Below the pieces are notes generated by a model. It was not told the origin of the DNA and made no database searches. It saw only the letters and a list, made by a program, of their open reading frames with translations. This document shows, piece by piece, positions 13,259-53,881 of a stretch of 64,000 nt of DNA. The stretch is from Stegostoma tigrinum (Eukaryota): assembly GCF_030684315.1 (NCBI RefSeq), contig NC_081367.1, positions 62,249,414-62,313,413 on the forward strand, read 5' to 3'. The first letter of the stretch is position 1; every line of letters begins with the position of its first letter. The position numbers were made by a program, and so were the translations under genes.

Positions 13259-13374
13259 TATAATAAAATGTGAGGCTGGATGAACACAGCAGGCCAAGCA
13301 GCATCTCAGGAGCACAAAAGCTGACGTTTCGGGCCTAGACCCTTCATCAGAGAGCATCTGCAGTTCCCATTATC
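13259..13374 (-). mobile_element. Short Penelope pLTR-derived insertion with a 15-bp TSD
   Basis: TSD TCATGAATATTTTTA at 13244-13258 and 13375-13389; absent from the gene B intron. Confidence 0.85.
13321..13350 (-). ncRNA. Minimal type I hammerhead ribozyme motif
   Basis: Reverse complement reads CTGATGAAGGGTCTAGGCCCGAAACGTCAG. Confidence 0.7.
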
Positions 13375-13632
13375 TCATGAATATTTTTACAAGAATTTGA
13401 GTTCATCAAAATTATGCTGGTTCCATAACTGCAAACCGATTCCAAAAACTTTAGCGAGGCAGTAAAATTGGACATTATGGGGTCTCAAGCTGAGATATTG
13501 ATTCAAAAAAGGACAGTCCTAACAAAGGTGACAGAAATGGGATTTGCACTGTCCACCAGACATCCTGTTACACATTTGCCAAACGGTATTACTAACATTT
13601 CTCCACCTTATTTGTTTCATTTTAATACTGAG

Positions 13633-13756
13633 GTTCCTAAAGCTGTTTGCTCTGAAAGCTGCCATGAAGGAACAAGGAAAGCAGAAAGAAAAGGACAACC
13701 CATTTGCTGCTTTGACTGCATACAATGTGCACAAGGAGAAATTAGTAACACAACCG
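13633..13756 (+). CDS. V2R gene A exon 5 (cysteine-rich domain)
   Basis: [41 protein letters not shown]; 124 nt; donor G|GTAAGA; the acceptor is GAG. Confidence 0.9.
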
Positions 13757-13862
13757 GTAAGAAACCACCATTGCAAATAGCGTTCCTGCTTAAACGTGAT
13801 ATCTGCGTTGCTCAGGCGTTCAGATTCCTCGTATAATGACAAAGTGTTGTGTTGCTTTTTAG

Positions 13863-14755
13863 ATTCTATTCATTGCATAAAGTGTCCTTTGGAATTCAGA
13901 TCTAATGAAAGACAGGATCAGTGCATCCCAAAGGAAATCGAGTTTCTTTCCTTTTCCGAGGTGATGGGAATCACTTTGGTGAACCTGGCGTTGTTTGGAG
14001 CCTGCACCACTGTCTCTGTATTCGCAATATTCTACATTCATAGACACACTCCAATTGTTAAAGCTAATAACTCTGAGTTAAGCTTCCTTCTTCTCTTTGC
14101 CCTCACTCTTTGCTTTCTATGTTCAATTACATTCATTGGTGAACCTTCAGTTTGGTCATGTATGCTCTGCCACGTGGCATTTGGTATTAGTTTTGTTCTT
14201 TGCATATCTTGTGTATTGAGTAAAACAATAGTGGTGGTGATGGCATTCAAAGCAACGTTTCCTAACAATAATATGATGAGGTGGTTTGGACCAAGACAAC
14301 AACGGCTGATGGTTTACATCCTTACCCTGATACAATGTGCAATATGTACTGCCTGGTTAATTGTAATTCCACCTTATCCTTTGAGGAACACTAGTCACTC
14401 TCAAAAGATAATCGTGTTTGAATGCAATGTTGGATCTTCATTAGCATTCTCTTGTGTTCTTGGTTATATTGGATTTCTTTCCTGTGTGTGTTTTATGCTA
14501 GCTTTTTTAGCTCGACAACTTCCAGATAACTTTAATGAAGCTAAGCACATAACGTTTAGCATGCTTATCTTTTGTGCCGTTTGGATAACTTTCATTCCAG
14601 CTTACATAAGTTCGCCAGGAAAATATGCTGTGGCGCTTGAAGTATTTGCTATTTTGGCCTCCAGTTTTGGTCTGCTTATTTGTATTTTTGCTCCAAAATG
14701 TTATATTATTCTTCTGAATAAAGAAAAGAATACAAAGAGGAACATGATGGGCTAA
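13863..14755 (+). CDS. V2R gene A exon 6 (7TM domain)
   Basis: Acceptor tttttag; [31 protein letters not shown] and FAPKCYIIL motifs; TAA ending at 14755. Confidence 0.95.
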
Positions 14756-15119
14756 GTGTCTTCCAAAAAACAACTTTGGAAATGTTCATAAATGTGTCCC
14801 GGATATTTTCGTAGGTGTTTATATTTTGCCGTAATGGTGGCGAATACTAGTTCCTTGTGAACAGATGTAAAGCTAACTGTTTTCCCAGCATTCATATTAC
14901 ACAATCGAACAAAGCTACAATGACCAGCAGGGAGTGCAATTTGAAGTTCGGCTGTTAATTTTTATTATTTTGACCATCTCCCCGAGCTTTAATCAGAATG
15001 GAAAATCGTGTATGACTTAGATGTATTTAAATACGCATCTAAGTCACTTTTAGTTTCCTTTTCGTGTCTTGAATCTCTTCGTTGCGTGGAATTTCGATTT
15101 GAAACTTGCTTTGTACATC

Positions 15120-15204
15120 AATAAAAAAACCAGTTCTGAAACTTAGCCTGTTCATGTGTACAAAAGGGATTGCTCACATCGTTTTCTCAAAACGCATTAA
15201 TAAA
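15120..15204 (+). promoter_or_regulatory. Candidate polyadenylation signals of gene A
   Basis: AATAAA at 15120 and 15199, both conserved in gene B (39061, 39139). Confidence 0.55.
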
Positions 15205-16392: not shown

Positions 16393-16600
16393 AACAAGGT
16401 GTAGAGCTGGATGAACACAACAGGTCAAGCATCATCTTCGGAGCAGGAAAGCTGACGTTTCGCGTCTAGACCCTTCATCGTCGGGTCTAGGCCCGAAAAG
16501 TCAGCTTTCCTGCTCCTAAGATTCTGCTTAACCTGCGATGTTCATCCAGCTCTACGTCTTGTTACCTCGGATTCTCCAGTATCTCCGGTTCCTATTATGT
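16393..16600. mobile_element. Palindromic Penelope pLTR-derived element
   Basis: Inverted arms meet at ~16480; TSD ctgcctcccttcagct (16377-16392) / ctacctcccttaagct (16601-16616); absent in unit 2. Confidence 0.8.
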
Positions 16601-16939
16601 CTACCTCCCTTAAGCTGTCAGGTTTCAAGGCAGCAAACGAAATCCTGGTGCGAGAAACGCCTGAGTTGGGAGTCAGGAAACTTACTGCGAGTAAACCTTA
16701 TTTCTATATTTGGATTTCAATCCGTTGCCCGGGTAGTCTGGTATCAAGCCTTTCCAACATTGTGATTTCTCCAGATGTCTTAAAGAATGGAACAAGTGTA
16801 GTATAAAAATTAGGAAATACTTGATGTGTTAAATGTAGATTTCCTGAAATATTACGTAAGATAACGTATAAAAGGTTACTGCAAACATATGAACTCATTT
16901 TGTGTTGAGTTATACGTTAAAACAAGTATTAAATTATGA

Positions 16940-17490: not shown

Positions 17491-17944
17491 TTGATGGAAA
17501 GACAACAGTGCTATCAGCGGAGATAGCAAGGCCTATCGCTACTGGAGTCCAAGATAACACAGCGGGGAGCTGGAGGAACACAACAGGGCAAACTGCATCA
17601 GAGGAGCAGGAAAGCTGACGTTTGGTTCCCAATTCGCAACGTCAGCATTTGAAGTATAATGCTTAGAATATGCACAGATCCAGAGTTGCTTTGTGGAAAA
17701 CTTTAATTCTGCTCAATGAAATTGGACGAGTTTTTAATGTCATTTTGTGTTAATTCATTGGTTACTCGGCAGCTATTTAAAAATGGAATTTTTTTGAACG
17801 TATTGTCAGTAAACATGGGGAAGAGAAAGATTAATACTCGTTTTTCACAAGAGGCAATTCACTGCACTGTTGTGTAGGTTGCTACAAGCCACATGTTGGA
17901 GATACAGTAAGACGTTATTAACAGTTGGAACACTGTGCTGTTCA

Positions 17945-19099: not shown

Positions 19100-20397
19100 T
19101 CTCCTCTGCCCCCTCTCTAAAGCTTCCACATCTTTCCCATATGTGGTGACAAAAACAGAACGCAATATTCCAAGGATGGTCTAACTAGAGTTTTGTAGAG
19201 CTGCAGCATACCCTCACAACTCTTAAAGTCAATCCCCCTGACAATGAAAGCAAGCACACCATATGCCTTCTTTACAAACCTATCAACTTGGGTATGAGGT
19301 TTGAGGGATCTCTGGATGCGACATCAGAACCCTCTGTTCCTCCACACTGCTGAGAATTCTGCCATTAACCCTGTATTCTGCATTCATTTTCGACCTTCCA
19401 ATATGAATTGCTTCACATTTTTCTAGATTGAATTCCATCTGCCACTTCTTTGCCAAGCTCTGCATCCTGTCAATGTCTAGTTGCAACCTCCAACAGCCCT
19501 CCATGTTGTCCATAACTGCACCAACCTTCATGTCTTGGCAACTTACTAACCCACCCTTTCACTTCCTCATCCAAGTCATTTTTAAAGATCACAAAAAGGA
19601 GAGGTTCCAGAAAAATTCCTTGCGCAACACTACTGGGCACTGAGCTCCTGGATGAATACTTTCCATCTGCTATTACATTCTGTCTTCTATTGTGCAGCCA
19701 GTTTTGCACCCAGACAGCCAAATTTCCGTGAATCACATGCCTCCTTACTTTCTGAATGAGCCTTCCATGTGGAACCGTATCAAATGCCTTGCAAAAATCC
19801 ATATACACCACGTCCACTGTTCTACCTTCATCAATGTGTTTTATCACATCCTCAAATAATTCAATAGGTCTTGCAAGGCATGACCTGTCACTAAGCCATG
19901 TTGACTATTTCTAATCAATTTTTTTTTCAAATAATCATAAATACTATCTCGCAGAATCCTCTCCACTAATTTGCCCAACACAGAAGAAAGACTGATCTGT
20001 CAGTAATTTTGAGGATTATCTCTCTTCCCTTGTTTGAACAAGGGGATGACATTTGCCACCTTTCAATCTTCTGGTACTACTCCAGTGGACAATGAGGATG
20101 CAAAGATATTTTCCAAAGGGGCAGCAATCTCTTATTCACTTCCCGTAGAAACCTTGGGTAGATCTTTTTTCTGGCGCAGGGGACTTATCTATCCCCATGT
20201 CATTCCAAAATTTCTGGCACATCTTCCTTCCTAACATCAATCTGCTCGAGCATATCTGTCTGTTTCATGCTATCCTCACAAAATTAAAACTCCATCTCAC
20301 AGGTGAATACTGAAGCAAAGTATTTATAAAGGATCCCTTCCACCTCCTCTGACTCTGCACACAAATTTCCTCCACTATCCCTGACTGGCTCTACCCT
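19100..20397 (-). mobile_element. CR1 LINE RT fragment interrupted by the ERV LTR
   Basis: ORF 19470-19847 VDVVYMDFCKAFDTVPHGRL...; WQMEFNLEKC. Confidence 0.9.
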
Positions 20398-21129: not shown

Positions 21130-22430
21130 ATAACCCATATCAGGGACGAGAAGGGAGCTGCTAGCCTGGCAAACACAACTCTGCAGCAAGATTTCAGGCA
21201 TACCATAAATATACAGCAGGCAGTTATGATAACTGTTAGAATAACTAACCTATAGAGCAGCTATGAGCCCCAAGAACCACTCATAAGCTATCCCAACAAG
21301 CCCCCTCCCATTCGGGGTCCCTCTCTGTACTGTTCCAACTGCCCCTGTATGGCTTGTATAGCCTGGGTAATATTATAGGACACATCGGTAACATGAGTAA
21401 TGCACTTGTCTTCTATAATAGAACGTACTCCTCCTTGCTGAGCCAGTTCATAGTCCACTGCATACCGGGTTTGCTGAGCATAAAGCCGAAGTTCGGCTAA
21501 TTCTTGATTGACTGCCTCCAATGCTGTCATTGCGCTGTTTCCCAGGGTAGTGACTACGCATATCAGGTAGTTTCGGGTTTTTTTTGCGGCCACCACCCCT
21601 GGGGAGCCTCTCAAGTTGTCAGTTCCTAGGAAGCCACATCCCAAGGAAGAACCCAAGGCAATTAGGTCCTGGAATGCAGCACAAAACTCCCGGCTCAGGA
21701 AGCATGTGACAATTCGCTGTTGAGTCAGTGCTCGTTCAGGACAAGGGGCCGTGAGAGGCCCAATGGTCTCAATAGCAAACAGCATTGGCAAAGTTGGAGT
21801 GGCAGTTCTGAAGGTCCCGTTAAGAAGGAAAATGAATTCCTTCTTATTCCGGTAGCAGGTGGAGTTAAATGGAAATGTCCAGCCCTGTTTCTACATGGGT
21901 GCAATTACAATCCCCACAAGTCCATTGTATGCCCGGGGTCACAGTTATTGGTTTAGATTCTAAACAGGGGCCGTTCAACAGTCCTCCTTTAGTTGTGCAA
22001 GTTTTGTTTTTATGCACCGGTGGGGCCAGGAAACATTATGGGGGTGATTAGTGACTAGAGCATGCACACAAGTCCCAGTTCTATTAAAGCAAAACGGGTA
22101 GCTGTTGGGATTTGTACAGTTAGCTCCTTCCTTCCCATGCCTCTGTTTAGTGCCTATACAATCCGAAGGGTCATTAACTGCCAATTCCACACACCTACCC
22201 TGCACACCTTTCGTCAAAGTTCCCCTCATTGCTCGGGAAGGCTTACCGGAACACTCGACTTCATAGAGCTGACTAAGGTTCCAGGCTGGTGTTGCCACAA
22301 TTCACGCCTCTACAGACTGTGCTAGCGGGTAACACGCTGTCCGATTCTCGTGCAGCTGGACGTGTGTTCCATAAAACAAATTGTCCTGCCGGCCATGCAC
22401 GGTCAAACTAACGCTCAGTCCAATGATTAA
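21130..22430 (-). pseudogene. env: ERV env remnant (gamma-type TM with immunosuppressive domain)
   Basis: ELAELRLYAQQTRYAVDYELAQQGGVRSIIEDKCITHV is an ISD plus a decayed CX6CC; heptad repeat; downstream hydrophobic TM (LVILTVIITACCIFMVCL); Cys-rich SU fragments; frameshifted. Confidence 0.8.
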
Positions 22431-22699: not shown

Positions 22700-24113
22700 C
22701 AGTTAAGTTCCAGGCGCGGAGAAGTCAGAAATTGGTTCCTTACTATTGTTGCAATGATAAGTTAAGGCTCTTCTCATCTGGGGATGAGTATTATCCGGCC
22801 AATCAATGTTATTAGTGCGAATAGCTGTCTCCACAGTCTCAGGTAAACACTGCAGCAAGAGAGCATTAAACTGTGTTGAGGGATTCCCTGCAATGCAAGA
22901 AGTATCACCAGCATAGGTGGAGCAAAAATGGCCCCAGAAGTCAGGACCATCCCCGCCGGGTTTGGGTTTGCACTCTGGCACTTTGGTAACGTCTACCGGC
23001 TGCTGTAAGATTCACTTAAGCGCATCTTTAATGGTTTGTAACCGAAGATCGTCAGCCATGAAGCCTGTAAAAGCATTCCAGTCTTGGGGAGCTGGGTCTC
23101 CTCCGTGGCTTTTCCACCTAGTACATTCACTAGGGGTGAAAGCCATGCAGCACAGGATAAACAGGTCTTGGGGTGGGGTTGGTACATTTGAATAGTGCCC
23201 AGGATGTAATGTATAAAGAAGACTTTATAAGACTATAAAGGCGTCTTCTGGTTTTAAAACAATCTTGCCCTCCCTCTTTTTGTCCACGAACAGTCTGTTC
23301 GTATTCAGTTGCATATTTGTCTGCTTAGTTTTAGACCTAGTACGACAGGAGATAGGGTCTGTACAAGCCGCGGGTTTGTCAGGAGACTCATGTGGGCTGA
23401 TTACTGAAGGTCTTGGAGATACTATAGCGGGAGGTCTAGTTTGGTCAGCATACGATGGCAGTGACAGGGCTACGGGCGATTGCTGGGACTGATGTCAATG
23501 TTGGGGTGCCTGCAGATGTAGGTTGGCCAAGGACGGTAGAGTTTGGAGGGGATAGTGGTCCCGACGGGGCAGAGGGGTGCCTTCCCCAGTCCTCCTTGTC
23601 TTGCCCATCTGTATCATTATTTTGGAGCAACATCGGCATGCCAGATATGTCAGGAGGTGCCTCCGATTTTTTTCTAATCCCCAATCTTTGTCTCGTCTTT
23701 ACCTTTCTAGCTTTCATTGTTTAACTCTTTCCCTTTCATTCATCTCACGATCCGTACACTGCAGCGTTAACATCTCCCAACGTTTAGGTTTTCCCTCACT
23801 ACCACAGACACTGATCCCTCTCCTACTTGCATTATCCACCCAACTAGCCAGTTTTGATTTCTCAATCAGCTCCTCAGCTCTCTTTCTCCAGAATGACATT
23901 AACCCTTTCCATTTTCTTCCTGCATTACGTGTCCATAGTGCCTTTTCAGCTTCAGTACATAGATCTATATCCCACGTTCCCCCTAGTGGCCAATTCTCAA
24001 TTTTTTTGCTTAGGCATGCCAACAGACGTCTGTACTGTACTTCATTTTCGGGGTCATCCCGGCATAGCCAATGTAAAGGAGCTCGGACACGACTTATCTA
24101 ACGTTTGTCCCAT
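22700..24113 (-). pseudogene. gag: ERV gag remnant
   Basis: MGQTLDK myristoylation-type start at 24113; matrix-like WPLGGTWD; PSAP late-domain motif in a Pro-rich region; frameshifts and stops. Confidence 0.7.
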
Positions 24114-25749
24114 TTTTAGCACTTTTGCTTTTTACTTATTCCTATATACTACACTAGTGTCCTTAGACTCAACACCCACTTCAGTGTCCTGACCTTCGCG
24201 CGGGGGATCTCCCCTCTTAACAACCGGTCTAAGGCAGGGTGGTTGAGACAGACACTGCAACTGTCCTATGCCTCTGTCTGAGCACCTTTTCCACTTTATT
24301 AACCGCCCCCCGAGCTTACTTTACCAATTTTACCTGGCCTGGAGACTCTAACTCCGGCCACCGGAGGACTCTAACCTCCCGGATTTTTCAGTTACCTGAC
24401 CTGCGGACTCTAAAACCGGCCACCGGGGGACTCTAACCTCCAGGCGTTAGGATTCAGTAGTGTTCAAGACTGTGAGTCGTCTCGTGGTTCCATCAGTACA
24501 GAGCCACACAGGGACGAGCGGCCACACGGGTGGCAGGTTAGTGAGAGGACCAAGGTGAATCGCATCTTGCGGGCCCGTACGCCTCACTCCACCAAAGCTC
24601 GAACTTATTTATTCAGTCCTCCACGTAAGATTGCTGTACATGCTGGAACCCATATTTCCTTTGTAGGTGTTGAGCCGATGGCTCAACATTTCCTTCATTT
24701 GGAATCAATTCCAATTGAAAGAAATCGCAAAATGGTGAACTGAAACTGCATTTAAAGGTTTTTTTGTTGGGAAATTCCAACCGCAGTGACTCTTGTTGAT
24801 AAAAGACGTTTTGGCTTCAGGCCTGTTCACTCTGTTAACACCTGTATGAGTGGATCATCAGCCAGCCTGAAACAGTGGGAGAAATTCGGCTTAGTCAGTT
24901 CATTCAAGGCTGGCGACATTGTTTTAGGAGGAATTTTCAGCCTGCATTCAAACGTAGAATATGGGGATCTGTCATTTTCAACCGAACCCGAAGCGGTATT
25001 GTGTAAAACGTTAGTTGGATTTCGCACGGAACAAAACCTCCAAAAATATTAACGTGATGTTGTGTTTTGTATGGCGGGTGCATATTTGAGCCTCTTTGCA
25101 TACGGAATTATACCTCAAATTGCAGTGAAGATAAAGTTGTCCTTCAGCTGTGAAGACCATTCAGCAAATATGGATTTGAGGAGTTGCAGGAGACGTGTTT
25201 TTTTTTCTGGTGCGCCGGCACGATAACGTTTTCTGTTGCTTTTGACGCTTTCGCGTTGATAACTTGATTTTGAACTACTTTAGAATTCAATTAATCGTAC
25301 CGCCGCATCTATCTAAATCATTTAATTTGTCATATACCAATGTCATTTCTTTCACGTTCTGCTGCCGTTGTATTTTTTTTAAATTAAGGTTTGATTTCAG
25401 AGAATTTCGCTTTGTGCAGGCTATCATGTTAGCAATTGAAAAAATAAACGGAAACCCTATACTGCTCCCGTGCTTAACACTGGGTTCCCAGACTTATGAT
25501 TCTTTTGGCACGCTGTCCTTGTCTACGAAAGCATCCTGAGACATTGTGATTCGGCGAAGGGATGTCGTTTCACAGGATAACTGTTGAAATGTGAATGCTG
25601 TTGCTGCGGATTCTGGATCCTCACAGTCAACGGCAGTTTCAAGGCTATTACTCCCATGGTAAGTAAATGTCGTCAAATATAACGACAGCACATCATCGCG
25701 AAATTGCTGTAACATTGTGTCGTGGAGTTTTTTTTAGCCGCAGACAACG

Positions 25750-26540
25750 ATATATTTCAGTACCTCGTGACCTCACCTGTTATCAAACATCCATCTATTA
25801 CAATCCCATTTTTCAACTTGACTTGTAGACTTGCATGGTTTGGCTTTTCAAGTGCCTTTCTGAATAACGCTGAAATGTCTCAAGAGTTCCGGCCTGTACC
25901 ACCGTCTTAGGCATTGAGTTCGTGATCCCAGAAAATAAACTCCTCAAATTCTCTCTAACGCTCCTGCTCCTGACCTTAAAACTAACCCCCTGGTTAGTGA
26001 ATCCTTCTCTGAGGTGAAAGTTTCTGCCGACTTATACTTCCTGTGCCCCTCAGAACTTTGCACACCTTAACCAAGTCCTTCCTCAGCCTTTTCTGCTCTT
26101 TGGGAAACGACCCTATCCTATCTCAGAGGGAGTAAGAACTGCCGATGCTGGAGTCTGAGATAACACAGCGTGGAGCTGGAGGAACACGGCAAGCCAGGCA
26201 GCATCAGAGGAGCAGGAAAGCTGATGTGTCGGGTCGGGACCCATTTCTCTTCAGAAGGGTCCCGACCCGAAACGTCAGCTTTCCTGCTCCTCTGCCGCTG
26301 CCTGGCTTGTTGTGTTCCTCCAGCTCCACACTGTGTTATCCCTATCCGATCTAATCTCGTTTCTTAGCTGTCTCACTCCTGTGCAGTAGTCATTCTGGTG
26401 AGTCTCTTCTGCACCCGCTCTAATGCAAGTGCATCCTTGTTATATTACGGTGAGCAAAACTATTCACAATACTTCTGCTGCGATGTATCATTATGTACAA
26501 CTCGATCGTAACTTCTTTTATTTTTGTTTTCTATTCCTTG
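25750..26540 (-). mobile_element. CR1 3' fragment carrying a palindromic Penelope insert (~26125-26339); both shared with unit 2 (51240-52010)
   Basis: TSD-like ccctatcctatct / ccctatccgatct; arms meet at ~26250. Confidence 0.75.
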
Positions 26541-27099
26541 ATTTAAAAACTGTAATGAGGTTGACTACATTGATCTAACTTTCATCTCACTTGAGATTCA
26601 CAGTAAAATCACCTCAACTAAACAGTGAAAATGAGAAACGAAAGGCGACTAGATCACAGCAAAGAATGGAAGTTTCACATTACGATTTCATTCATTCACT
26701 TGTCAATGTTATGGTATATAAAATCAAATGAAAACTTACATCAATTACACTTCGTTAACATTAACCGTTGGCAATCGACCTGGTATTTGAAATCGATGTT
26801 TTTTTTGAATACATAAGGCAGATATATATATTTTACGGATCTAGAAATACTTCATTGATCACATGTCTCATTAATATTGTGTAAGGAATTTTTGAGATAG
26901 CATTCGGCGGTAGCTATGAAATATTCACAACAATTGCTTCCAAATTTTGTTTGTACTATTTCTTTCTAGGGTCCATTTGATATTCAGAAGCATCTTAGTG
27001 TATATTTGCAGTTTATTATTAATTGTTAGTGGTTTGGTTACCTTTAATCTTTTTCATAAATCAACAAGTTTTTCCGAATTGCTGTAAGATCGCCTCAAT

Positions 27100-27215
27100 T
27101 ATAGATTAGATTACTTACAGTGTGGAAACAGGCCCTTTGGCCCAACAAGTCCACACTGCTCCTTGAAGCATCCCACCCAGACCCATTCCCCCGTAACCCA
27201 CACACCCCTGAACCC
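27100..27215 (-). mobile_element. SINE/CR1 3' tail fragment
   Basis: tagattagatt...cagtgtggaaacaggcccttt, same family as 53180-53495. Confidence 0.7.
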
Positions 27216-30802: not shown

Positions 30803-31351
30803 GTCAGTGGGTGCATTGAGACAGTTATCTGCCCTCATGCTGCTTCACATTTGGAATTGATTTAAGAATTTAAGAATTTTGTTTTTTTTTAATCGTTAAA
30901 CTTATTTTTGTGGTCTGTCCCAAAGTGCTTGACAATCAGTCATGTACTTTTGCTATTTAGTCATTTTTTCACGATTCTTAATACGGCAAAGCATGTAGCC
31001 CAAGCTCCCACAATCAGTCTTGTAATCAAAACTTAGAAACCTCTTCTAGCGTGAGTGACAATTCTTGGTGAAGGCATTGTGAAAGTTCTCGTGTTCTTCG
31101 AAATACTTATTTTGGATCGTGGAAGGAAGGTCGGGAATCCCCTACACGTCGTATTTGAAACTAAGCGCATTGCCAAGTCTTTGTTTAATGTCAGTTAAGA
31201 TTTTGCACTCAGGGTCTGCGTTGGAGCATACATCCATCAATTCCCCGTTCAGAGACTGAATTATAGCTAATGATATGGTCCCCTTGGATATAACTGCCAT
31301 AGTTGTTTCCTATGTTCTCATTTAAATCTTGTCCCCTTGTCTTCTCTGCAG

Positions 31352-31643
31352 TTTTCAGTTCCGTCCATTCCGTTGGGCACTGGCGATGATTTTTGCAATT
31401 GAGGAAATAAATAACGATACGGCTCTGCTACCCGGTGTCACTCTGGGATACCGCATTTACGATTCTTGTAAATTGACCCAGTTATCGCTAAAAGCAGCAA
31501 TGGCGTTTCTGAACAAACCGGAAGCAAACCCGCCCTCTGATAACTGCAAAAGCTCCTCCACTGTTTCTGCGATTGTCGCTGATTCCGGATCCACGAGGTC
31601 TTTAGCAATAGCACCTTCTATGGGTACCTTCAGTATCCCAATG
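31352..31643 (+). CDS. V2R gene B exon 2
   Basis: Acceptor ctctgcag; FQFRPFRWALAMIFAIEEINN...IPM; donor GTAAGA; 292 nt. Confidence 0.93.
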
Positions 31644-34957: not shown

Positions 34958-35070
34958 GTGAGGAACATTTAACACAGATTGACTGCTGTATTTACAGCAA
35001 TATCTAAAGTGGTCGAAGTCATGTTTGAATATTTGCAATTAATATAAACGTATTCTGACTTTTTTTTAAG

Positions 35071-35298
35071 TTACTATATTACATGAGAACAATGAATTTC
35101 ACAACCAAGATTGGCGAAAAGATTTATTTTGACGAAAATGGAGATCCTGTCGCAACATATGATATTGTAAACTGGCAACCGAATGCCCTCGGTGACATTA
35201 ATGTTGTAAATGTTGGGCACTATGATGGGTCAGCTCGATCTGGAGTAGAATTTTCGATAACAGAAGGGGCAATTGTTTGGCATGGAGGTCAGAAGTCG
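35071..35298 (+). CDS. V2R gene B exon 4
   Basis: Acceptor ttttaag; [10 protein letters not shown]...GGQKS; donor GTAAGA; 228 nt. Confidence 0.93.
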
Positions 35299-36260: not shown

Positions 36261-36703
36261 CAATAAAATGTGAGGCTGGATGAACACAGCAGGCTCACAT
36301 TTTACTATCTTGGATTCTCCAGCATCTGCAGTTCCCATTGTCACTGATACAATTTTAACCTCACTGCGAAGCCTCTTCCAGGGATGCCTAACCTGAAGAA
36401 GTTACCCTCCTCCCTCCGGACCAACTTCAGGGAATCACTCTCCCACTGCAACTCTCTTGTAATCTCTTCAGCCTTGAAACTGCTCGACCATGCCCTGAAG
36501 CTTCTTTTCTCTCCATCTTCGGTCCGCCTCCCCCTCTCTCCCTATTTATTCCAGAACCCTCACCCCATTCCCCTCTCTGATGAAGGGTCTAGGCCCGAAA
36601 CGTCAGCTTCTGTGCTCCTGAGATGCTGCTGGGCCTGCTGTGTTCACCCAGCCTCATATTTTATTAAATTGGATTCTCCAGCATCTGCAGTTCCCATTAT
36701 CAC
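36261..36703 (+). mobile_element. Rearranged Penelope-like element in gene B intron 4 with a 13-bp TSD
   Basis: TSD TCCTCCAGACATA at 36248-36260 and 36704-36716; pLTR tail, extra segment, then a second pLTR. Confidence 0.85.
36577..36606 (+). ncRNA. Minimal type I hammerhead ribozyme motif, sense strand of gene B intron 4
   Basis: CTGATGAAGGGTCTAGGCCCGAAACGTCAG. Confidence 0.7.
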
Positions 36704-37350
36704 TCCTCCAGACATATGCTCGTTTCCATCTGGAAGAACACTGGCATCAAATCCATGGGAACATCATCACATGCAACCACCGCCCCACCCCCCCCCCACG
36801 CCCCCAGCAGCCACGCACCACTTCGACTTCAAAATGTGTGACAGTACCTGACTTATAATAATACGGTCCTATCTATAGCAAATGAATCTCAGCAGTTCAG
36901 GCAGGCAGGTCAAAGACAACTAGGGAAGCAAAAATTGTTGGGTTGACCAGCAATGAACCCGTCATGTTAATAAATTCAGAAAAAAAGACATTTTTTATTT
37001 CTGAATCTGATTTTCATTTTTGCCATTAAACAGTAGGAGTGCAAATTATATCCAATATTATTTCGTTGCTTCCCTTTTTTTCAATAATTAATGAAGCTAC
37101 TCCAACGACGCGACATGAATGTTATTGCAAAAATATACTGGTTCGGTAACATCAAAACTATTCCAAACACTTTGCATCAGCTATAAACTTGGACATTACG
37201 AGGTCATAAACCGAAATAATGTTTCAAAAAGGACAGTCTGATCAAAGCTGACAGAAATAGATTTTGTACTGTACACCAGACATAATGTTGTACGTTTGCC
37301 AAACGGAACAGCTAATATTTCTCCGCTTTTGTATTCATTTTAATAATGAG

Positions 37351-37474
37351 GTTCCTAAAGCTGTTTGCTCTGAAAGTTGCCATGAAGGAACAAGGAAAGC
37401 AGAAAGAAAAGGACACCCCATTTGCTGCTTTGATTGCATTCCATGTGCACAAGGAGAAATTAGCAACACAACTG
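37351..37474 (+). CDS. V2R gene B exon 5
   Basis: [41 protein letters not shown]; 124 nt; GAG acceptor, GTAAGA donor. Confidence 0.9.
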
Positions 37475-37580
37475 GTAAGAAACCGCCGTTGCAAATACCA
37501 TTTCTGCTTAAACTTGATGTTTGCGTGGCTCAGGCGTTAAGATTCCTCGTAGAATGACAAAGTGTTCTGTTGCTTTTTAG

Positions 37581-38509
37581 ATTCCATTCATTGCATAAAG
37601 TGCCCATTGGAATTCAAATCTAATGAAAGACAGGATCAGTGCATCCCAAAGGAAATCGAGTTTCTTTCCTTTTCCGAGGTGATGGGAATCGTTTTGGTGA
37701 CACTGGCGTTGTTTGGAGCCTGCACCACTGTCTCTGTATTCGCAATATTCTACATTCATAGACACACTCCAATTGTTAAAGCTAATAACTCTGAGTTAAG
37801 CTTCCTTCTTCTCTTTGCCCTCATTCTTTGCTTCCTGTGTTCAATCACATTCATTGGTGAACCTTCAGTTTGGTCATGTATGCTCAGCCACGTGGCGTTT
37901 GGTATTGGTTTTGTGCTTTGCATCTCATGTGTATTGAGTAAAACAATAGTGGTGGTGATGGCATTCAAAGCAACGTTTCCTAACAATAATATGATGAAGT
38001 GGTTTGGACCAAGACAACAACGGCTGGTGGTTTACATCCTTACCCTGGTACAATGTGCAATATGTACTGCCTGGTTAATTGTAATTCCACCTCATCCTTT
38101 GAGGAACACTAGCCACTCTAATGAGATAATCGTGTTTGAATGCAATGTAGGATCTTCGTTCGCCTTCTATTGTGTTCTTGGTTATATTGGATTTCTTTCC
38201 TCCGTGTGTTTCGTGGTAGCCTTTTTAGCTCGACAACTTCCAGATAACTTCAATGAAGCTAAGCACATAACGTTTAGTATGCTTATCTTTTGTGCCGTTT
38301 GGATAACTTTCATTCCAGCTTACATAAGTTCGCCAGGGAAATATGCTGTGGCTGTTGAAGTATTTGCTATTTTGGCCTCCAGTTTTGGTCTGCTTATTTG
38401 CATTTTTGCTCCAAAATGTTATATTTTTCTTCTGAATAAAGAAAAGAATACAAAGAGGAACATGATGGGCTCAGAGGCTTCCAAAAAAATGCTTTGGAAA
38501 TGTTCATAA
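37581..38509 (+). CDS. V2R gene B exon 6 (7TM)
   Basis: Acceptor tttttag; complete 7TM ending ...[15 protein letters not shown]. Confidence 0.95.
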
Positions 38510-38535: not shown

Positions 38536-38741
38536 GGAGATAATGGGAACTGCAGATGCTGGAGAAAGCAAGATAACAAAGTGTGGAGCTGGATAAACAC
38601 AGCAGGCCCAGCAGCATCTCAGGAGCACAAAAGCTGACGTTTCGGTCTCTGATGAAGGTTCTAGGCCAGAAACGTCAGCTTTTGTGCTCCTGAGATGCCG
38701 CTTGCCCTCCTGTGTTCATCCAGCTTCACACTTTGTTATCT
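38536..38741. mobile_element. Palindromic Penelope pLTR-derived element in the gene B 3' UTR
   Basis: TSD tattttcagagata (38522-38535) / tattttcggagata (38742-38755); variant hammerhead at 38649-38678; absent in gene A. Confidence 0.85.
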
Positions 38742-39504
38742 TATTTTCGGAGATAATTGTTTTTTTTTATCGTAAAGGTAGCGAATGACTATTCCTTGCG
38801 GACAGCCGCAAAGCTGAATGTTTTACTATCACCCATTTTACACGATCGAACGAAGCTACAATGACCAGCGGGAAGTGCAATTTGAATTTTGGTTCTTAAT
38901 TTTTGCGATGTTATACGTCTGTCGGAGTTTTATTTAACCAGAATGAGAAATCGTGCATGACCTGTATGTATTTAAAGATGCTACAAAGTCACTTTTAGTT
39001 TCCTCGTCGTGCCTAGAACTTTTTCATTGCGCAGAATTTTGATTTGAAACTTGCTTTATCAATAAAAATAATCAGTTCTGAAACTTTCTGTTCATGCTTA
39101 CAAAATGGATTGCTCACAACGTTTTCTCAAAACATATTAATAAAAATGCTGCCACTGTGCTAAGCTGATGTGGGTGGTCGCTGGGGGAAGAGTATGGTGA
39201 AGGTGGTGGGAAGAGGGAAATATTTGTAAACTTTGAGAGCACCATTTTGGGGGTACTGAATATTTAGCCTGTTTCAGAATTAGATTTCTATTCATTCCCC
39301 ATAGCAACTCGCTAATTTGCTTCTACTGTTCTCCTGCTGCGTATTTTCTCCCCGAAGTGCTGTAATTCACTGGTACGTTATAAGTTGTGCATTCAAAGAC
39401 TTACTTTTCCAAGCCAGTCCTGGAAAGCCTGTTCTTCATGCAGACTATCACGTATTGCATGCATAGTTTTGCACCTTGTTTGAAATCAACAACGCTTACA
39501 AATT

Positions 39505-45479: not shown

Positions 45480-46435
45480 GACATTAAAAGTAATATTAGC
45501 AAATTTGCTGATGGCACAAAGTTGGGTGGCAATGTGAAATATGAGGAGGATGTTATGAGAATATAGGGTGACTTGGACAGGCTAGGTGAGTGGACGGATG
45601 CATGGCAGATGCAGTTTAATGTGAATAAATGTGCGGTTATCCACTTTGGTGGCAAGAACAGGAAGGCAGATTACGATTTCAATGGAGTCAAGTTAGGTAA
45701 AGTGGAAATACAACGAGATCTAGGTGTTCTTGTACATCAGTCAATGAAAGCAAGCATGCAGGTACAGCAGGCAGTGAAGAAAGCTAATAGCATGCTGGCC
45801 TTCATAACAAGAGGAATTGAGTATAGGAGCAAAGAAGTCCTTCTGTAGCTGTACGGGGCCCTGGTGAGACAGGACCTGGAGTATTGTGTGCAGTTTTGGT
45901 CTTCAAATTTGAGGAAGGATATTCTTGCTATTGAGAGAGTGCAGCGTAGGTTCACGAGGTCAATTACCAGAATGGCAGGACTATCATGTGTTGAAAGATT
46001 GGAGCGGCTGGGCTTGCATACACTTGAGTTTAGAAGGATGAGAGGGGATCTGATTGAGGCATATAAGATTAATAAGGGATTGGACACTGTGGAGGCAGGA
46101 AGCATATTTCCGCTGATGGGTGAGTCCAGAACCGGAGGACACAGTTTAAAAATAAGGGGTAGGCCATTTAGAACAGAGTTGAGGAAAAACTTCTTCACCC
46201 AGAGAGTTGTGGATATATGGAATGCTCTGCCCCAGAAGGCAGTGGAGGCCAACTCTCTGGATACTTTCAAGAAAGAGATAGATAGAGGTCTTGAAGATAG
46301 TGGAATCAAGGGTTATGGGGATAAGGCAGGAACAGGATGCTGATTGTGGATGATCAGCCATGATCATAATGAATGGTGATGCTGGCTTGAAGGGCCGAAT
46401 GGCCTACTCCAGCAACTATTATCTATTGTCTATTG
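45480..46435 (+). mobile_element. CR1 LINE 3' portion
   Basis: ISKFADG.KLGG, WQMQFNVNKC, LEYCVQFWS, RRMRGDLIE; tail attatctattgtctattg. Confidence 0.92.
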
Positions 46436-47254
46436 ACTTGCCCGTGTGATAGTTCCGTTGTGGGTTTTGGGGAGGTTGCCCAACCTTTCCAACAATTGGA
46501 ATCAATTCCTATTGAAAGAATTCGGAAAATAGGAAGCTCCAATCGCAGTGACTCTTGCTAATAAAAGATTTTTTTGGCTTTGGGGTCTGTTCACTCTGTT
46601 AACACCTGTATGGCTGGACCATCAGCCAGCCTGGAAATAGTGGGAGAAATTGAACATACTCAGTTTATTCAAGGCTGGAATAATTATTTTAGGAGGAGTT
46701 TTCAGCCTGCACTCCAACTGTCATTTGCTACCGAACCCGAAGCGGTATTGTGTAAAACGTTAGCTGGCAGGAAGTGCTACACTTGCCCCCACAACTCCTC
46801 TCTCACCCCCATCCCAGGCCCCAAGATGACTTTCCATAATAAGCAGAGGTTCACCTGCACATCTGCCAATGTGGTATACTGTATCCATTGTACCCAGTGA
46901 GGCTTCCTCTACATTGGGAAAACCAAGCGAAGGCTTGAGGACCACTTTGCAGAACACCTCCGCTCAGTTCACAATAAACAACTGCACCTCCCAGTCGCGA
47001 ACCATTTCAACTCCCCCTCCCATTCTTTAGATGACATGTCCTCATAGGCCTCCTGCAGTGCCACAATGCTGCCACCCGGAGGTTGCAGGAGCAGCAACTC
47101 ATATTCCACTTGGGAACCCTGCAGCCCAATGGTATCATAGAACATAGAACATAGAACATAACAGCACAGTACAGGCCCTTTGGCCCTCAATGTTGTGCCG
47201 ACCTGTCATACCGATCTCAAGCCCATCTAACTTACACTATTCCATGTATGTCCA

Positions 47255-48590
47255 GAGATAATGGGAACTGCAGATGCTGGAGAATCCAAATGCGAGGCTG
47301 GATGAACACAGCAGGCCAAGCAGCATCACAGGAGCACAAAAGCTGACGTTTCGGGCCTAGACCCTTCATCAGAGAGGGGGATGGGGTGAGGGTTCTGGAA
47401 TAAATAGGGAGAGAGGGGGAGGCGGACCGAAGATGGAGAGAAATAAAGATAGGTGGAGAGAGTATAGGTGGGGAGTTAGGGAGGGGATAGGTCAGTCCAG
47501 GGAAGACGGACAGGTCAAGGAGATGGATGAGGTTAGTAGGTAGATGGGGGTGCGGCTTGGGGTGGGAGGAAGGGATGGGTGAGAGGAAGAACAGGTTAGG
47601 GAGGCAGAGACAGGTTGGACTGGTTTTGGGATGCAGTGGGTGGAGGGGAAGAGCTGGGCTGGTTGTGTGGTGCAGTGGGGGGAGGGGACGAACTGGGCTG
47701 GTTTAGGGATGCAGTAGGGGAAGGGGAGATTTTGAAACTGGTGAAGTCCACATTGATACCATTTGGCTGCAGGGTTCCCAGGCGGAATATGAGTTGCTGT
47801 TCCTGCAGCGTTCGGGTGGCATCATCGTGGCACTGCAGGAGGCTCATGACGGACATGTCATCTAAAGAATGGGAGGGGGAGTGGAAATGGTTTGCGACTG
47901 GGAGGTGCAGTAGTTGGTTGCGAACCGAGCGGAGGTGTTCTGCAAAGCGGTCTCCAAGCCTCCGCTTGGTTTCCCCAATGTAGAGGAAGCCACACCGGGT
48001 ACAGTGGATGCAGTATACCACATTGGCAGATGTGCAGGTGAACCTCTTCTTAATGTGGAATGTCGTCTTGGGGCCTGGGATAGGGGTGAGGGGGGAGGTG
48101 TGGGGGCAAGTGTAGCATTTCCTGCGGTTGCAGGGGATGGTGCCGGGTGTGGTGGGGTTGGAGGGCAGTGTGGAGCAAACAAGGGAGTCACGGAGAGAGT
48201 GGTCTCTCCGGAAAGCAGACAGGGGTGGGGATGGAAAAATGTCTTGCGTGGTGGGGTCGGATTGTAGATGGCGGAAGTGTCGGAGGATGATGCGTTGTAT
48301 CCGGAGGTTGGTGGGGTGGTGTGTGAGAACGAGGCGGATCCTCTTGGGGCGGTTGTGGCAGGGGCGGGGTGTGAGGGACGTGTTGCGGGAAATACGGGAG
48401 ACGCGGTCGAGGGCGTTCTCGATCACTGTGGGGGGAAAGTTGCGGTCCTTGAAGAACTTGGACATCTGGGATGTGCGGGAGTGGAATGTCTTGTCGTGGG
48501 AGCAGATGCGGCGGAGGCGGAGGAATTGGGAATAGGGGATGGAATTTTTGCAGGAGAGTCGGTGGGAGGAGGTGTATTCTAGGTAGAAGG
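47255..48590 (-). mobile_element. Inner Penelope-like element (RT C-terminus + GIY-YIG endonuclease ORF 47596-48465)
   Basis: VVYCIHCTRCGFLYIGETKRRLGDRFAEH...HF...EQQLIFRLGTLQPNGIN; TSD tccatgta(t/c)gtcca at 47241-47254 and 48615-48628. Confidence 0.9.
47343..47372 (-). ncRNA. Minimal type I hammerhead ribozyme motif in the Penelope pLTR
   Basis: Perfect 30-mer about 220 nt downstream of the GIY-YIG ORF stop. Confidence 0.72.
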
Positions 48591-51500
48591 GAAGGGATAT
48601 GGACGTACATGTTGTCCATGTACGTCCATATGCTTATCCAATGATGCCTTAAATGTGCCCAAAGTTGGCGAATCTACTACCGTTTCAGGCAAAGCATTCC
48701 ATACCCTTACTACTCTCTGAGTAAAGAAACTACCTCTGACATCTGTCCTATATCATTCACCCCTCAATTTAAAGCTATGCTCTCTCATGCTCGCCGTCAT
48801 CCATCTAGGAAAAAGGCTCTCCCTATCCACCCTATCTAACCCTCTGATTATTTTATATGTTTGAATTAAGTCACCTCTCAACCTTCTTCTCACTAATGAA
48901 AACAGCCTCAAGTCCCTCAGCCTTTTCTCGTAAGACCTTCCCACCATACCAGGCAACATTCTAGTAAATCTCCTCTTCACCCTTTCCAAAGCTTCCACAT
49001 TCTTCTTATAATACGGTGAACAGAACTGTACACAATACTCCAAGTGCGGCTGCACCAGAGTTTTGTACAGCTTCACCATAACCTCTTGGTTCCGGAACTC
49101 GATCCCTCTATTAATAAAAGCTAAAACACTGTATGCCTTCTTAACAGCCCTGTTAACCTGGGTGGCAACTTTCAAGGATCTGTGTACATGGACACCAAGA
49201 TCTCTCTGCTCATCTACACTACTAAGAATCTTACCATTGGCCCTGTATTTTGCCTTCTGGTTACTCCTACCAAAGTGCATCACCTCACACTTGTCCGCAT
49301 TAAACTCCATTTGCCACCTCTCAGCCCAGCTCTGCAGCTTATCTATGTCTCTCTGCAACCTATAGCATCCTTCGTCGCTATCCACAACTCCACCGACCTT
49401 AGTGTCGTCTGCAAATTTACTGACCCATCCTTCTACGCCTTCATCCAGGTCATTTATAAAAATGACAAATAGCAGTGGACCCAACACCGACCCTTGTGGT
49501 CCACCACTAGTAACTGCTCTCCAGGATGAACATTTCCCATCAACGACCACCCTCTGTCTTCTTTCAGCAAGCCAATTTCCGATCCAAACTGCTATATCTC
49601 CCACAATTCCATTCCTCCACATTTTGTACAATAGCCTATTGTGGGGAAGCTTATCAAACGCCTTGCTGAAATCCATGTACACCACATCAACCGGTTTACT
49701 CTTATCTACCTGTTTGGTCACCTTCTCAAAGAACTCAATAAGGTTTGTGAGGCACGACCTTCCCTTCACAAAACCATGCTGACTATCCCTAATCAATTTA
49801 TTCTTTTCTAGTTGATTATAAATCCTATCCCTTATAACGTTTTCCAACACTTTACCAACAACTGAGGTAAGGCTCACTGGTCATAATTACCAGGGTTGTC
49901 TCTACTCCCCTTCTTGAACAGGGGAACCACATTTGCTATCCTCCAGTCATCTGGCACTATTCCTGTAGACAATGATGAGTTAAAGATCAATGCCAAAGGC
50001 TCGGCAATCTCCTCCTTGGCTTCCCAGAGGATCTGAGGTTAAATCCCATCCGGCCCAGAGTACTTATCTAACTACACACTCTGTAGGATTTCTAATACCT
50101 CTTCCTTGTGAAAATCAATGTGGACTTCACCAGCTTCAAAATCTCCCCTTCCCCCACCACATCCCAAAACCAGCCCAGCTCATCTCCTCCCCCCACTGCA
50201 TCCCAAAACCAGCCCAGCCTGTCTCTGCCTCCCTAAACTGTTCTTCCTCTCACCCATCCCTTCCTCCCACCCCAAGCCGCACCTCCATTTCCCTACTAAC
50301 CTCATCCCACCTCCTTGACTTGTCCATCTTCCCTGGACTGACCTATCCCCTCCCTACCTCCCCACCTATACTCTCCTCTCCACCTATCTTCTTTTCTCTC
50401 CATCTTCGGTCCACCTCCCCCTCTCTCCCGATTTATTCCAGAACCCTCTCCCCATCCCCCTCTCTGATGTAGGGTCTAGGCCCGAAACGTCAGCTTTTGT
50501 GCTCCTGAGATGCTGCTTGGCCTGCTGTGTTCATCCAGCTTCACACTTTATTAGCTGGATTTTACGTGGTGTTCCAAATGCCTTTGTTAGCACTTGGAAT
50601 TATATCTCAAATTGCAGTGAAATAAAAAGACGCCCTTCAACTATGAAGACCATTATGCAAATCTGGGTTTGAGGAGTTGAGGAAGTGTTTTTATGGTGCG
50701 CCGGCACAAAGTCGTTTGCTGTTGCTTTTGACGCTTTCGCATTGACCTTTTTTTTACGAACTACTGAGGACTCAGTTAATCGTACCGCCGCATCTATCTA
50801 AATCATTTAATTCGTCAAATACCAATGTCATTTCTTTCCCTTTCTGCTGTCGTTGTATTTTTTTAGGTTTGATTTCAGAGAATTTCTCTTTGGGCAGGCT
50901 ATCATGTTCGCAATTGAAGAAATAAACAGGAATCCTACACTGCTCCAGCACCTTACGCTGGGTTACCAGATTTATGATTCTTGTGGCATGCTGTCCTTGT
51001 CTCTTCAAGCAGCCTTAGACATTTTGAATCGGCGAAGGGATGCAGTTTCAGAGGATAACTATCGGAATGTGAATGCTATTGCTGCGGATTCTGGATCCAC
51101 ACAGTTCACCGCAGTATTAAACCTTTTCAAAATTCCCATGGTATGTTAACAACGTCATATATTACGACAGCACAGCATCGCGAAATTGCTCTCGCATTGA
51201 CCCGTGGAGCTTTTTTTTATTTTACCGCAGAGAAAGATATCTTTCAGTTCCTCGGTGACCGCATCTGTGATCAAACATGAATCTATTCCAAACCCATTTT
51301 CCAACACTTGGCTTGTAGCTTTGCATGGTTTAGCTTTCAAGAGTCTTTCCAAATAGTCATTAAATGTCTCAAGAGTTCCTGCCTCTTTCACCCTTTTAGG
51401 CATTGAGTTTCTGATACCAAAAAATGGAATCCTCAAATTCCCTCTAACGCTCCTGCTAGACCCCTGGTTAGTGAGTCCTTCTCTACGAGGAATGTTTCTG

Positions 51501-52759
51501 CCGACCTACACTTCCGGTGCCCCTCGGAACTTTGCGCACCTTTACCAGTTCCTTTTCCAGCCTTTTCTGCTCTGTCGGAAACAACCCTGTCTGATCTCAG
51601 AGATAGGAAGAACTGCCGATGCTGGAGTCTGACATAACATAATGTGGAGATGGAGGAGCACAGCAGGCCAGGGAGCATCACAGAAGCAGGAAAGCTGACG
51701 TTTCGGGTTGGGCCCCATTTCTCTTAGGAAGGATCACGACCCGAAACTTCAGCTTTCCTGCTCCTCTGATGCCGCCGGCCCCATTGTGTTCCTCCAGCTC
51801 CGCATTATGTTATCCCTATCCGATCTAATCTCCCTCCATAGCTGTATGACTCCTGCCATTTTTGTGAGTCATTTTTGTGAGTTTCATCTGCATCCGCTCT
51901 AATGCAAATGCATCCTTGTTATAGTGTGGTGAGCAAAGCTGTTAACAATACTTTTGCTGTGGTGTATCATTACGTACAACTCTATCATAATTATTTCTAT
52001 ACCTTGACTAATAAACTGCAGTTTGACAAAACTGATGTAACTTTCATCTCATTTTAAATTCACAGTAAATCAACCCAGATGAACAGTGAAAATGAGAAAT
52101 GAAATGTGACTAGATCACTGCAAAGAATGGGAGTTTCACATTACGATTTCATTCATTCACTTGACATTGTTATGGTATATAAAATAAAATGAATACCTAT
52201 GTCAATTTCTACTCGTTAACATTAACCATTGACAGTCGGCCTCCGATTTGAAATTGATGCGTTTTTGAATAAGAAAGGCAGATTTTTTTTCACTGATTTA
52301 AAAATAATTCATTGTTCACATGTCGCACTAAAGCTGTATAGTGAAGTTTTGAGGCAACTTTCAGCTGTTCTAGCTATGAAATATTCACAATAATTGCTTC
52401 CAAGTTTTGTTTTTTCCATTTTGTTCTCGTGTCCATTTGATATAGAAGCATCTTAGTGTGTATTTGAAGTTTATTATTAATTGTTAATGGTTTGCTTACC
52501 TTTGATCTTTTTCATAAATCTTCACTGTCAACAAATTTTGCCCAAAATGCTGTAAAATTGCTTCAATTATGTCATGGGTTCTTACGATTATTTTCCATGT
52601 TGATAGCTCAATTCTATACACACTCACCACCAAGCACCATATATGTTTGGATGAACGATAAGTTTTGCGGCAAAAGTGCAGCCCAGCTGATTTTTTTTAA
52701 ACCAAGATTAATTACCTATTACAGGTCCCACTACCCGAGCATCAATTGTGTTGCAAATA

Positions 52760-53175
52760 GATTGGCTTCTTGGATGGCAGGACTGACATTTGAAGAAGAC
52801 AAGATTGGCAAGTAATATGGTCACTGGTGTCGCAAAGGATGATGGGTATCTCATAGAAACCTGTAAAATTCTAACAGGATTAGACAGGGCAAATGCATAA
52901 AGATATCTCCAATGGCTGGAGAATCCAGAATGATGGCTGCGAAAGGGCAGGTCATTTGGGACTGAGATGAGGAAACATTTTTCCACCTACAGAGTGGTGA
53001 CCCGATGCGACTCTTTGCTGCAGAAAGCAGTCGAAGGCAAAAAATGAATATTCCCACGAAACAGCTAGATAAGTTCTTAAGGCCGAAGAGATGAAAGGAT
53101 AGGTGGAGAAAGGAGGAACGGGGAACTGACTTGAATGGTCAGGATGATCATACTGAATGGCAAAGCAGGCTTGAA
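52760..53175 (+). mobile_element. CR1 3' fragment
   Basis: gatggcaggactgacatttgaagaag...ggatgatgggtatctcatagaaac, CR1 3' UTR. Confidence 0.7.
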
Positions 53176-53179
53176 GGAT

Positions 53180-53495
53180 TAGATTTAGATTAGATTCCCT
53201 ACAGTGTGGAAACAGGCCCTTCGGCCCAACACGTCCACACCGCCCCTTGAAGCATCCCACCCAAACCCATCCCCCTATACCCCACACACCCCTGAACACT
53301 ACGGGCAATTTAGCATGGCCAATCCACTTAGCCTGCACATCTTTGGACTGTGAGAGGAAACGGAGCAGACGGAGGAAACCCACGCAGACACGGGGAGAAT
53401 GTGCAAAATCCGCACAGTCACCCGAGGTTGGAATTGAACCTGGGTCGCTGGCGCTGTGAGGCTGCAGTGCTAACCACTGAGCCACCGTGCCGCCC
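53180..53495 (-). mobile_element. Young full-length HE1-like V-SINE
   Basis: Reverse complement starts ggggcggcacggtggctcagtggttagcactgc (A box) with ggttcaattcc B box, V-domain and (aatct)n tail. Confidence 0.9.
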
Positions 53496-53751
53496 CTCAA
53501 CTAGTCTATTCTTGCATTTTTCCCCCTATGTTTCTAACTTACATGCTCGCTGTTACATTCGCATGTAGAGACGTTCAAACTCTCGACTACTTTTTAAGAT
53601 CTGAGAGACTTTAAGGATTTTAGTCCATGCAAGGAGGACTAATAATAACATGAATATTTGTGGACTTGCACAAGTGAATTGCACCATGATTATGACTTGA
53701 AATCAGTCTTTTACACCGCTACTATGTAGAAAAAACTACTCAAAACCGTTA

Positions 53752-53881
53752 GAGATAATGGGAACTGCAGATGCTGGAGATTCAAAGATAATAAAATGTG
53801 AGGCTGGATGAACACAGCAGGCCAAGCAGCATCTCAGGAGCACAAAAGCTGACGTTTCGGGCCTAGACCCTTCATCAGAGG
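53752..53881 (-). mobile_element. Short Penelope pLTR with a perfect hammerhead motif (53849-53878)
   Basis: Complete ~130-nt terminal unit ending right after the CTGATGA core. Confidence 0.85.

Follow-up and report, generated by a model that had tools for sequence, protein, structure and literature searches.

Copy ends of Penelope-like retroelements in Stegostoma tigrinum suggest an RNA that begins just before its minimal hammerhead ribozyme and is only occasionally cut by it

Minimal type I hammerhead ribozymes are known from the pseudo-long terminal repeats (pLTRs) of metazoan Penelope-like elements (PLEs), and the literature has described both the ribozyme class and its place in these retroelements from 2014 on (Cervera and De la Pena 2014, PMC4209133). 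The published motifs combine a CUGANGA core and an extra nucleotide with a G10.1-C11.1 pair, GAAA, a loop-less palindromic 15.2-16.2 pair, and a short helix I, and they lie in pLTRs, mostly as single truncated copies and opposite-strand pairs. Their activity in vitro was low, with no in vivo evidence of cleavage in that paper, and cleavage has been described as requiring a dimer (PMC4209133; PMC6765202, the latter citing Lunse et al.) and discussed as assisted by protein (PMC11167929). In the 2024 work on the anole Poseidon element PAc (Frangieh et al. 2024, PMC11167929), cleavage was not needed for insertion in vitro. The ends of genomic copies bear on what the hammerhead does in the element cycle. 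Here we analyze 64,000 nucleotides of the Stegostoma tigrinum genome (GCF_030684315.1, contig NC_081367.1, positions 62,249,414 to 62,313,413 of the forward strand; "the window" hereafter), which contain many copies of a PLE with such a hammerhead. Where these copies start, in the window and genome-wide, suggests an element RNA whose 5' end lies shortly ahead of the ribozyme and in which cleavage is no more than occasional.

On the basis of anatomy and covariation, the motif is, with very little doubt, a minimal type I (dimer-type) hammerhead in the pLTR of a very abundant, recently active Neptune-type PLE. As the original prediction had it, the hammerhead is of the minimal type I kind. It matches the consensus of PMC4209133, but with its 4 bp in helix II and 2 bp in helix I it falls short of the S. 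mansoni type, and the 90,316 identical copies counted here far exceed the 4,000-9,000 motifs given for coelacanth and Xenopus; one supplement file of that paper contains no shark names. Endonuclease-bearing (EN+) Neptune elements (Craig et al. 2021, PMC8557442) likewise have a reverse transcriptase (RT), a CX2-5CxxC linker, and GIY-YIG at the C terminus, together with partial tandems, inverted 5'-truncated copies, and an optional tail of 30-40 bp; the clade placement here is by motifs, those in the open reading frame (ORF) having been spotted by eye. PAc offers parallels in two internal RT starts that define its tail, uncut RNA as main template, and AT-rich targets, whereas its hammerhead overlaps the start codon and the one here lies 166 nt upstream of the ATG. 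That study maps RT starts rather than the ends of complementary DNA (cDNA), and its main text is without the terms "TATA", "transcription start", "template jump", and "strong stop". Non-LTR retrozymes (bioRxiv 10.64898/2026.07.22.740005), reported from one chondrichthyan, share the type I hammerhead from PLE pLTRs but are tandem arrays, whereas the copies here are dispersed element ends; the window holds no tandem array with a hammerhead in each unit, the mark of such a retrozyme. Elsewhere in the genome, two short direct tandems of ∼440 and ∼300 bp (L101:6750-8440 and L119:4982-6190), made of the pLTR and the ORF start with an intact hammerhead per unit, are retrozyme-like. A literature search, mostly without subscription papers such as Lunse et al., returned neither a paper that analyzes copy ends in this way nor one describing genomic copies that begin at the cut.

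The hammerhead and its fold

Positions are numbered from the C of CUGA (0), which places the predicted cut between +27 and +28. An identical 30-mer carrying the motif had been placed at four sites in the window, and all four coordinates are right (given with their elements in Table 1); the location in a pLTR downstream of a GIY-YIG ORF is also true at 47343. Genome-wide (3.2 Gb), the 30-mer has 90,316 exact matches and its reversed control none, and a relaxed hammerhead descriptor gives 53 matches in a random sample of 680 kb (68 stretches of 10 kb) versus 2, 0, and 1 in three Markov-1 controls. An Rfam scan, among the checks named beforehand, returned nothing at gathering level in the window, and the Rfam hammerheads gave no match at E≤10 around 47343; such short variants fall outside the Rfam models.

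The listed variant copies are present, but most have decayed and lost an essential feature: A9 is U at 50464, the G10.1-C11.1 end of stem II is broken at 38649, G12 of GAAA is gone at 56263 (+) and 59004 (-), and stem II is damaged at 39635 (-); only the copy at 10132 still passes the descriptor. The proposed GUC triplet and the caveat of a stem I of ∼2 bp both apply to family 1 (2 bp), but not to family 2, which ends in GUU and has a 4-bp stem I (AGUU/AACU). These two families had been described as differing in stem II yet both keeping the cores, which was taken to suggest selection; their stems are nearly the same and mainly the loop differs. Selection on the fold is real, but the support for it comes from covariation across four more distant families. 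Stem III is a loop-less palindrome throughout, ACGU in families 1-3 and AGCU in family 4. The third family (L120:8475, L106:626, L091:6817, L129:8342) has more extended stem II pairing and 3 bp in stem I; most of its copies are long, and the starts of the few short ones lie near -10 to -21. In the fourth (L122:8059), which lies downstream of RT and GIY-YIG remnants, the stem III change is C-G to G-C and stem I is CAC/GUG.

The covariation set comprised 11 hand-picked copies from the four families; the rows are related, and the events are therefore not independent. The core, CUGANGA with its extra nucleotide, GAAA, and NUH, forms invariant columns in 11/11 copies. Over the fold, 90% of cells are paired, for a score of 0.798 that none of 500 shuffles reached, and slid controls paired at 23-37%. 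Helix II, closed by G10.1-C11.1, is 100% paired with three of its four pairs changing on both sides, although the descriptor required this helix and the A15.1-U16.1 pair and the result is partly circular there. Stem I was left free, and its core-proximal pair is paired in 11/11 copies with three pair types, the second pair in 10/11.

Within one family, copies decay neutrally, and conservation among dead copies is not selection. Per-position conservation among copies was rejected as a test of selection, since it reflects CpG decay: in family 1, G12 and the CG of stem III are the most mutated core positions (13-25%), as CpG decay would have it. The only subfamily-level change within 0 to +29 falls on the free N7 (17/82 copies). 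The individual copies in this window are dead-on-arrival fossils, and the label of a dispersed family of ribozymes fails if working ribozymes are meant, nearly all copies being dead-on-arrival retrocopies of a template that was apparently uncut at the hammerhead.

Copy starts around the ribozyme

With roughly 700,000 related pLTR copies in the genome (extrapolated from 152 in 680 kb), cDNA ends become countable at single-base resolution. The 152 family 1 copies in the sample start upstream of -35 (55), at -35 to -9 (2), at -8/-7 (2), at -6 to +1 (44), at +2 to +27 (29), and at +28 to +60 (20); the same bins hold 5, 2, 1, 29, 13, and 1 of 51 family 2 copies, which were retained at ≥74% identity and may include a few family 1 cross-hits. 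A hard wall stands in both families 4-5 nt before the core, with a TATA-like box ∼30 nt above it. Of the 90,316 exact copies, 54,839 retain the 8 native bases upstream. A pattern for the wall junction has 22,585 genome-wide matches; junctions were tallied by eye on the first 100 matches listed per pattern, which lie on the first contigs, and here ∼80 of them are true, none falls at -7/-8, and those at -6 have microhomology with the inverted arm. By extrapolation the wall class holds ∼32,000 copies, or about one fifth. Short-read contigs, which do not show RNA starts, likewise have joints and loose ends at -1 to -4, so the wall is not an assembly artefact.

Core promoters are recognized by the TATA, initiator (Inr), and TCT consensuses. 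Long copies carry TATTTAT at -34 in family 1 and TATAAA at -33 in family 2, with initiator-like motifs whose +1 would be at -4. Judged from these positions, the wall is probably the transcription start of the element RNA, which would mean that most templates were uncut. A spliced 5' exon is an unlikely cause, as short copies have no common upstream sequence. Among the first 100 matches listed, 71 have an additional G ahead of -4. This was considered as a cap signature but dropped as too unspecific, since in many cases the G belongs to the AG of the inverted arm and since G often precedes +28 as well.

A different account of both 5' signals keeps the same ribozyme but makes them pauses of RT on uncut read-through RNA, at the base of the hammerhead (+28) and at a C-rich run (-4/-5), with no physical RNA ends. 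Family 1 does have a long C/U tract just upstream, about a third of its copies (55/152) read through -5, and for an RT moving 3' to 5' the structured motif begins at +28. However, the wall has the same offset in family 2 despite a different upstream sequence, and the TATA distance holds in both; moreover, stops would be expected to trail off past a pause, yet -35 to -9 is almost empty. Taken with the bases that precede +28 (below), we consider pausing unlikely.

The second signal lies at the predicted cut. Junction patterns, each requiring two non-element bases before the given position (the +55 pattern being stricter in front), give 2,687 genome-wide starts at +28 versus 631 at +27, 469 at +30, 249 at +23, and 136 at +55, the +27 count also taking in +28 ends that a C happens to precede; the words used have comparable totals (33, 32, 37, 28, and 27 in 680 kb). 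A joint search over +23 to +36 placed 33 of the 100 matches listed at +28 (22 palindromic arms at 15 loci and 11 others), ∼13 at +35, and 0-7 at each other position. Twenty of the 37 non-palindromic +28 loci listed were inspected, and 16 are true junctions exactly at +28, with unrelated DNA, direct pieces, or inverted arms as partners. Short-read contigs also have joints at +28, including head-to-tail joints from tail to +28, although possibly from few loci. The +28 class is estimated at ∼2% of copies, a tenth of the wall class. A G stands in one of the two preceding bases in 29/37 non-palindromic starts at +28 versus 14/56 at +23 (among the matches listed, by eye, with the two patterns excluding different letters); such an excess is expected for untemplated additions at a run-off end and speaks against a pause. 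The peak may be a fossil of in vivo cleavage.

The peak also admits an explanation without cleavage, in which the family 1 hammerhead is vestigial and never cuts, and +28 ends arise by end-joining or later inverted-repeat collapse at the AGCT palindrome. Most +28 joins are indeed palindromic, and the 2-bp stem I is weaker than the stems of families 2-4; D. virilis, however, also has a 2-bp helix I (PMC4209133). Positions +23 (ACGT) and +55 (GGCC) begin 4-nt palindromes as +28 does, and they yield roughly 110 and 64 palindromic arms compared with roughly 1,690 at +28. The confinement of the sole subfamily-level change to the free N7 likewise speaks against a vestigial motif, and we give this explanation scarcely any credence.

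Several observations weigh against a start at the wall with occasional cutting at +28. Unconstrained energy folding of monomer and dimer gives non-hammerhead folds, and the family 1 box, TATTTAT, is non-canonical. At +28, self-palindromic joins make up 63 of the first 100 matches listed, non-palindromic starts outnumber those at +30 only ∼2-fold, 4 of the 20 inspected loci are internal mutations or deletions, and 2-3 of the 16 true junctions could be fold-back via the 2-nt stem I complementarity. None of 98 alignments at ≥85% identity in the 680-kb sample starts at +28. Family 3, which has no palindrome at its cut, is without a clear peak there (10 versus 4-8 at neighboring positions among the 100 matches listed), as pausing would also have it. 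For the anole element, no RNA-seq reads ending at the cut were found, and insertion in vitro did not need cleavage (PMC11167929). Family 2 does not lend itself to such a count, since a blunt join at its cut reads identically to one at its GTTAAC palindrome.

Intact element and proposed cycle

One intact copy (L095) has hammerheads 3,670 nt apart (5541 and 9211), one at each end of an ORF of 1,089 aa with YIDD, a CX4CxxC linker, and GIY-YIG at the C terminus. Pfam matches of this ORF (RVT_1, E 5e-5; GIY-YIG, E 0.004) are both below the curated cut-offs, and a PDB sequence search with it gave no match at E≤1. A 5'-truncated tandem copy lies upstream and an inverted copy beyond, and the insertion hallmarks of EN+ PLEs (partial tandem, inverted 5'-truncated copy, optional tail) are present. 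In the 98 sample copies of at least 85% identity, 3' ends cluster at +89 to +94 (36) and +124 to +132 (22), ∼36 nt apart, in keeping with the two internal RT starts and the tail of PAc (PMC11167929). Head-to-head pairs account for 51 of 95 short family 1 copies, some bluntly joined -4/-4. In one such pair (L098:2700-2950) both arms have the same rare loop II variant, which implies either a single source RNA for the two or copying of one arm from the other. A nine-unit tandem array of 208 bp at G000:C2:58043051-58044747 derives from an inverted family 1 junction.

The seamless partial tandem of L095 could also be explained by circular RNA (PMC4209133): both hammerheads would cut efficiently, the unit-length RNA would be ligated, and circles would be copied for more than one unit. 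This would account for the intact hammerheads in copies, and the +28 peak suggests some cutting. A circle has no end at -4/-5, yet the wall class is an estimated ∼10 times the +28 class; the wall would need a separate cause, and we regard this route as very unlikely.

We propose instead that the RNA is linear. It is likely that a partial copy lying upstream provides, in its 3' untranslated region (UTR), a promoter of the TATA type, and that transcription starts at -4/-5. The first RNA nucleotides would then be the 5' strand of stem I, and a start only 4-5 nt before the core may best explain why stem I has only 2-4 bp. With the TATA box outside the RNA, activity would be expected only of copies that, like L095, have a partial tandem upstream. 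D. virilis Penelope (PMC2377424) fits this, its promoter being in the pLTR of an upstream partial copy, although there it is internal and TATA-less. A. vaga Pen2a (PMC3846280) has its promoter in the same place, together with TATA and Inr-like motifs and head-to-head palindromes. RT would prime at two internal sites, about +92 and +128, and priming in the 5' pLTR would run off at the RNA 5' end after ∼95-135 nt, producing short and head-to-head copies. The A. vaga paper ascribes palindromes to self-priming on an antisense template, whereas those here would fit run-off at the 5' end of sense RNA. The ribozyme, with its loop-less stem III, would not fold as a monomer and would mostly be uncut when copied. 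On balance, we think that cleavage did happen in a minority of RNAs, probably in dimer form or aided by protein, and that the copies beginning exactly at +28 stem from these. As a whole, we find this mechanism reasonably likely from the copy sequences.

A further step, more tentative and somewhat doubtful, is that both 5' ends of the RNA are preserved in the genome: one at a transcription start by which the 4-5 nt next to the cap serve as stem I, and a minority end at the scissile bond, which would amount to germ-line cleavage by a minimal hammerhead of metazoan PLEs. The RNA would then be terminally redundant, from -4 to about +130, and the short copies would be strong-stop-like cDNAs. Seamless, promoter-restoring partial tandems would come from strand transfer across the terminal repeat, as in retroviruses, rather than from circles, and a cut RNA would lose its cap along with its first 32 nt. 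Two exact predictions follow, a cap at -4/-5 and a 5'-OH at +28 in a ratio of ∼10 to 1, and L095 is an intact young element in which to test them.

Elements and neighbors in the window

Pieces missed by the original prediction include 16406-16602, 26123-26340, 38537-38645, 51597-51814, 17545-17623, 54942-55077, and the copies at 32644 and 44799.

Table 1. Features of the window, with positions of the whole stretch and offsets counted from the C of CUGA.
Position	Strand	Feature	Details
47343..47372	-	Family 1 minimal hammerhead (30-mer)	Core, extra A, 4-bp stem II, GAAA, loop-less ACGU stem III, GUC, AG; predicted cut 47345/47344; ∼240 nt below the truncated ORF
47253..48585	-	5'-truncated Neptune-type element	ORF end 48585-47614 (94% identity with residues 761-1084 of L095; CX4CxxC linker, GIY-YIG), 3' UTR, hammerhead, 3' end with tail at 47253
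47373..47406	-	Putative core promoter	TATTTAT starts at -34 (47406); pyrimidine initiator; 5' wall -4/-5 (47376/47377)
13260..13376	-	Short insertion	Copy -4 to +90 with 30-mer hammerhead 13321-13350, plus a piece of the tail, inverted; AT-rich direct repeat of 15 bp on either side
36262..36704	+	Complex insertion	Inverted fragment; tail, 5' UTR, and first 39 codons (36384-36500); copy -76 to +127 with 30-mer hammerhead 36577-36606
53751..53880	-	Short copy -2 to +127	30-mer hammerhead 53849-53878; adjoins the start of a decayed class C G protein-coupled receptor (GPCR) seven-transmembrane exon
38537..38742	.	Head-to-head pair	Arm +18 to +126 (-), 38537-38645; arm -3 to +93 (+); hammerhead at 38649 damaged
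50144..50556	+	Family 1 copy -317 to +92	Hammerhead 50464-50493
58911..60425	-	Older family 1 relative	ORF broken; hammerhead decayed, core from 59004
16406..16602	.	Older head-to-head pair	Arms meet within the hammerhead
26123..26340	.	Older head-to-head pair	+ arm from -3
51597..51814	.	Older head-to-head pair	+ arm from -3
10129..10231	+	Short family 2 copy beginning at -3	Hammerhead 10132-10161, GUU triplet
32644-32740		Paralog of the 10129..10231 copy	In a duplicated segment
39501..39896	-	Family 2 long copy	Hammerhead, decayed, starts at 39635
55721..56399	+	Family 2 element end	GIY-YIG remnant 55721-56011 (46% identity with family 1), TATAAA box, initiator-like TCAGTT, hammerhead (decayed) starting at 56263
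55711-55128		Inverted ORF remnant	Beside the family 2 element end
8772-14755; 25390-29649; 31326-38509; 50814-54727	+	Class C GPCR gene copies	
21288-21890; 23714-24097	-	ORF remnants	No Pfam match
48753-49880	-	Long interspersed nuclear element (LINE) RT fragment	RVT_1
45849-46343	+	LINE RT fragment	
19470-19904	-	LINE RT fragment	

The host region is a tandem cluster of the four class C GPCR copies, with ANF_receptor and 7tm_3 exons, which we take to be V2R/OlfC-like; in the exons checked two look intact and two are decayed. Segments 9800-10400 and 32318-32919 are paralogs of each other, which makes the family 2 insertion older than the duplication that gave rise to them. The ORF remnants at 21288-21890 and 23714-24097 resemble the transmembrane part of a retroviral envelope and a gag N-terminus. 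The LINE fragments are presumably CR1-like, and the one at 48753-49880 adjoins the truncated Penelope copy.

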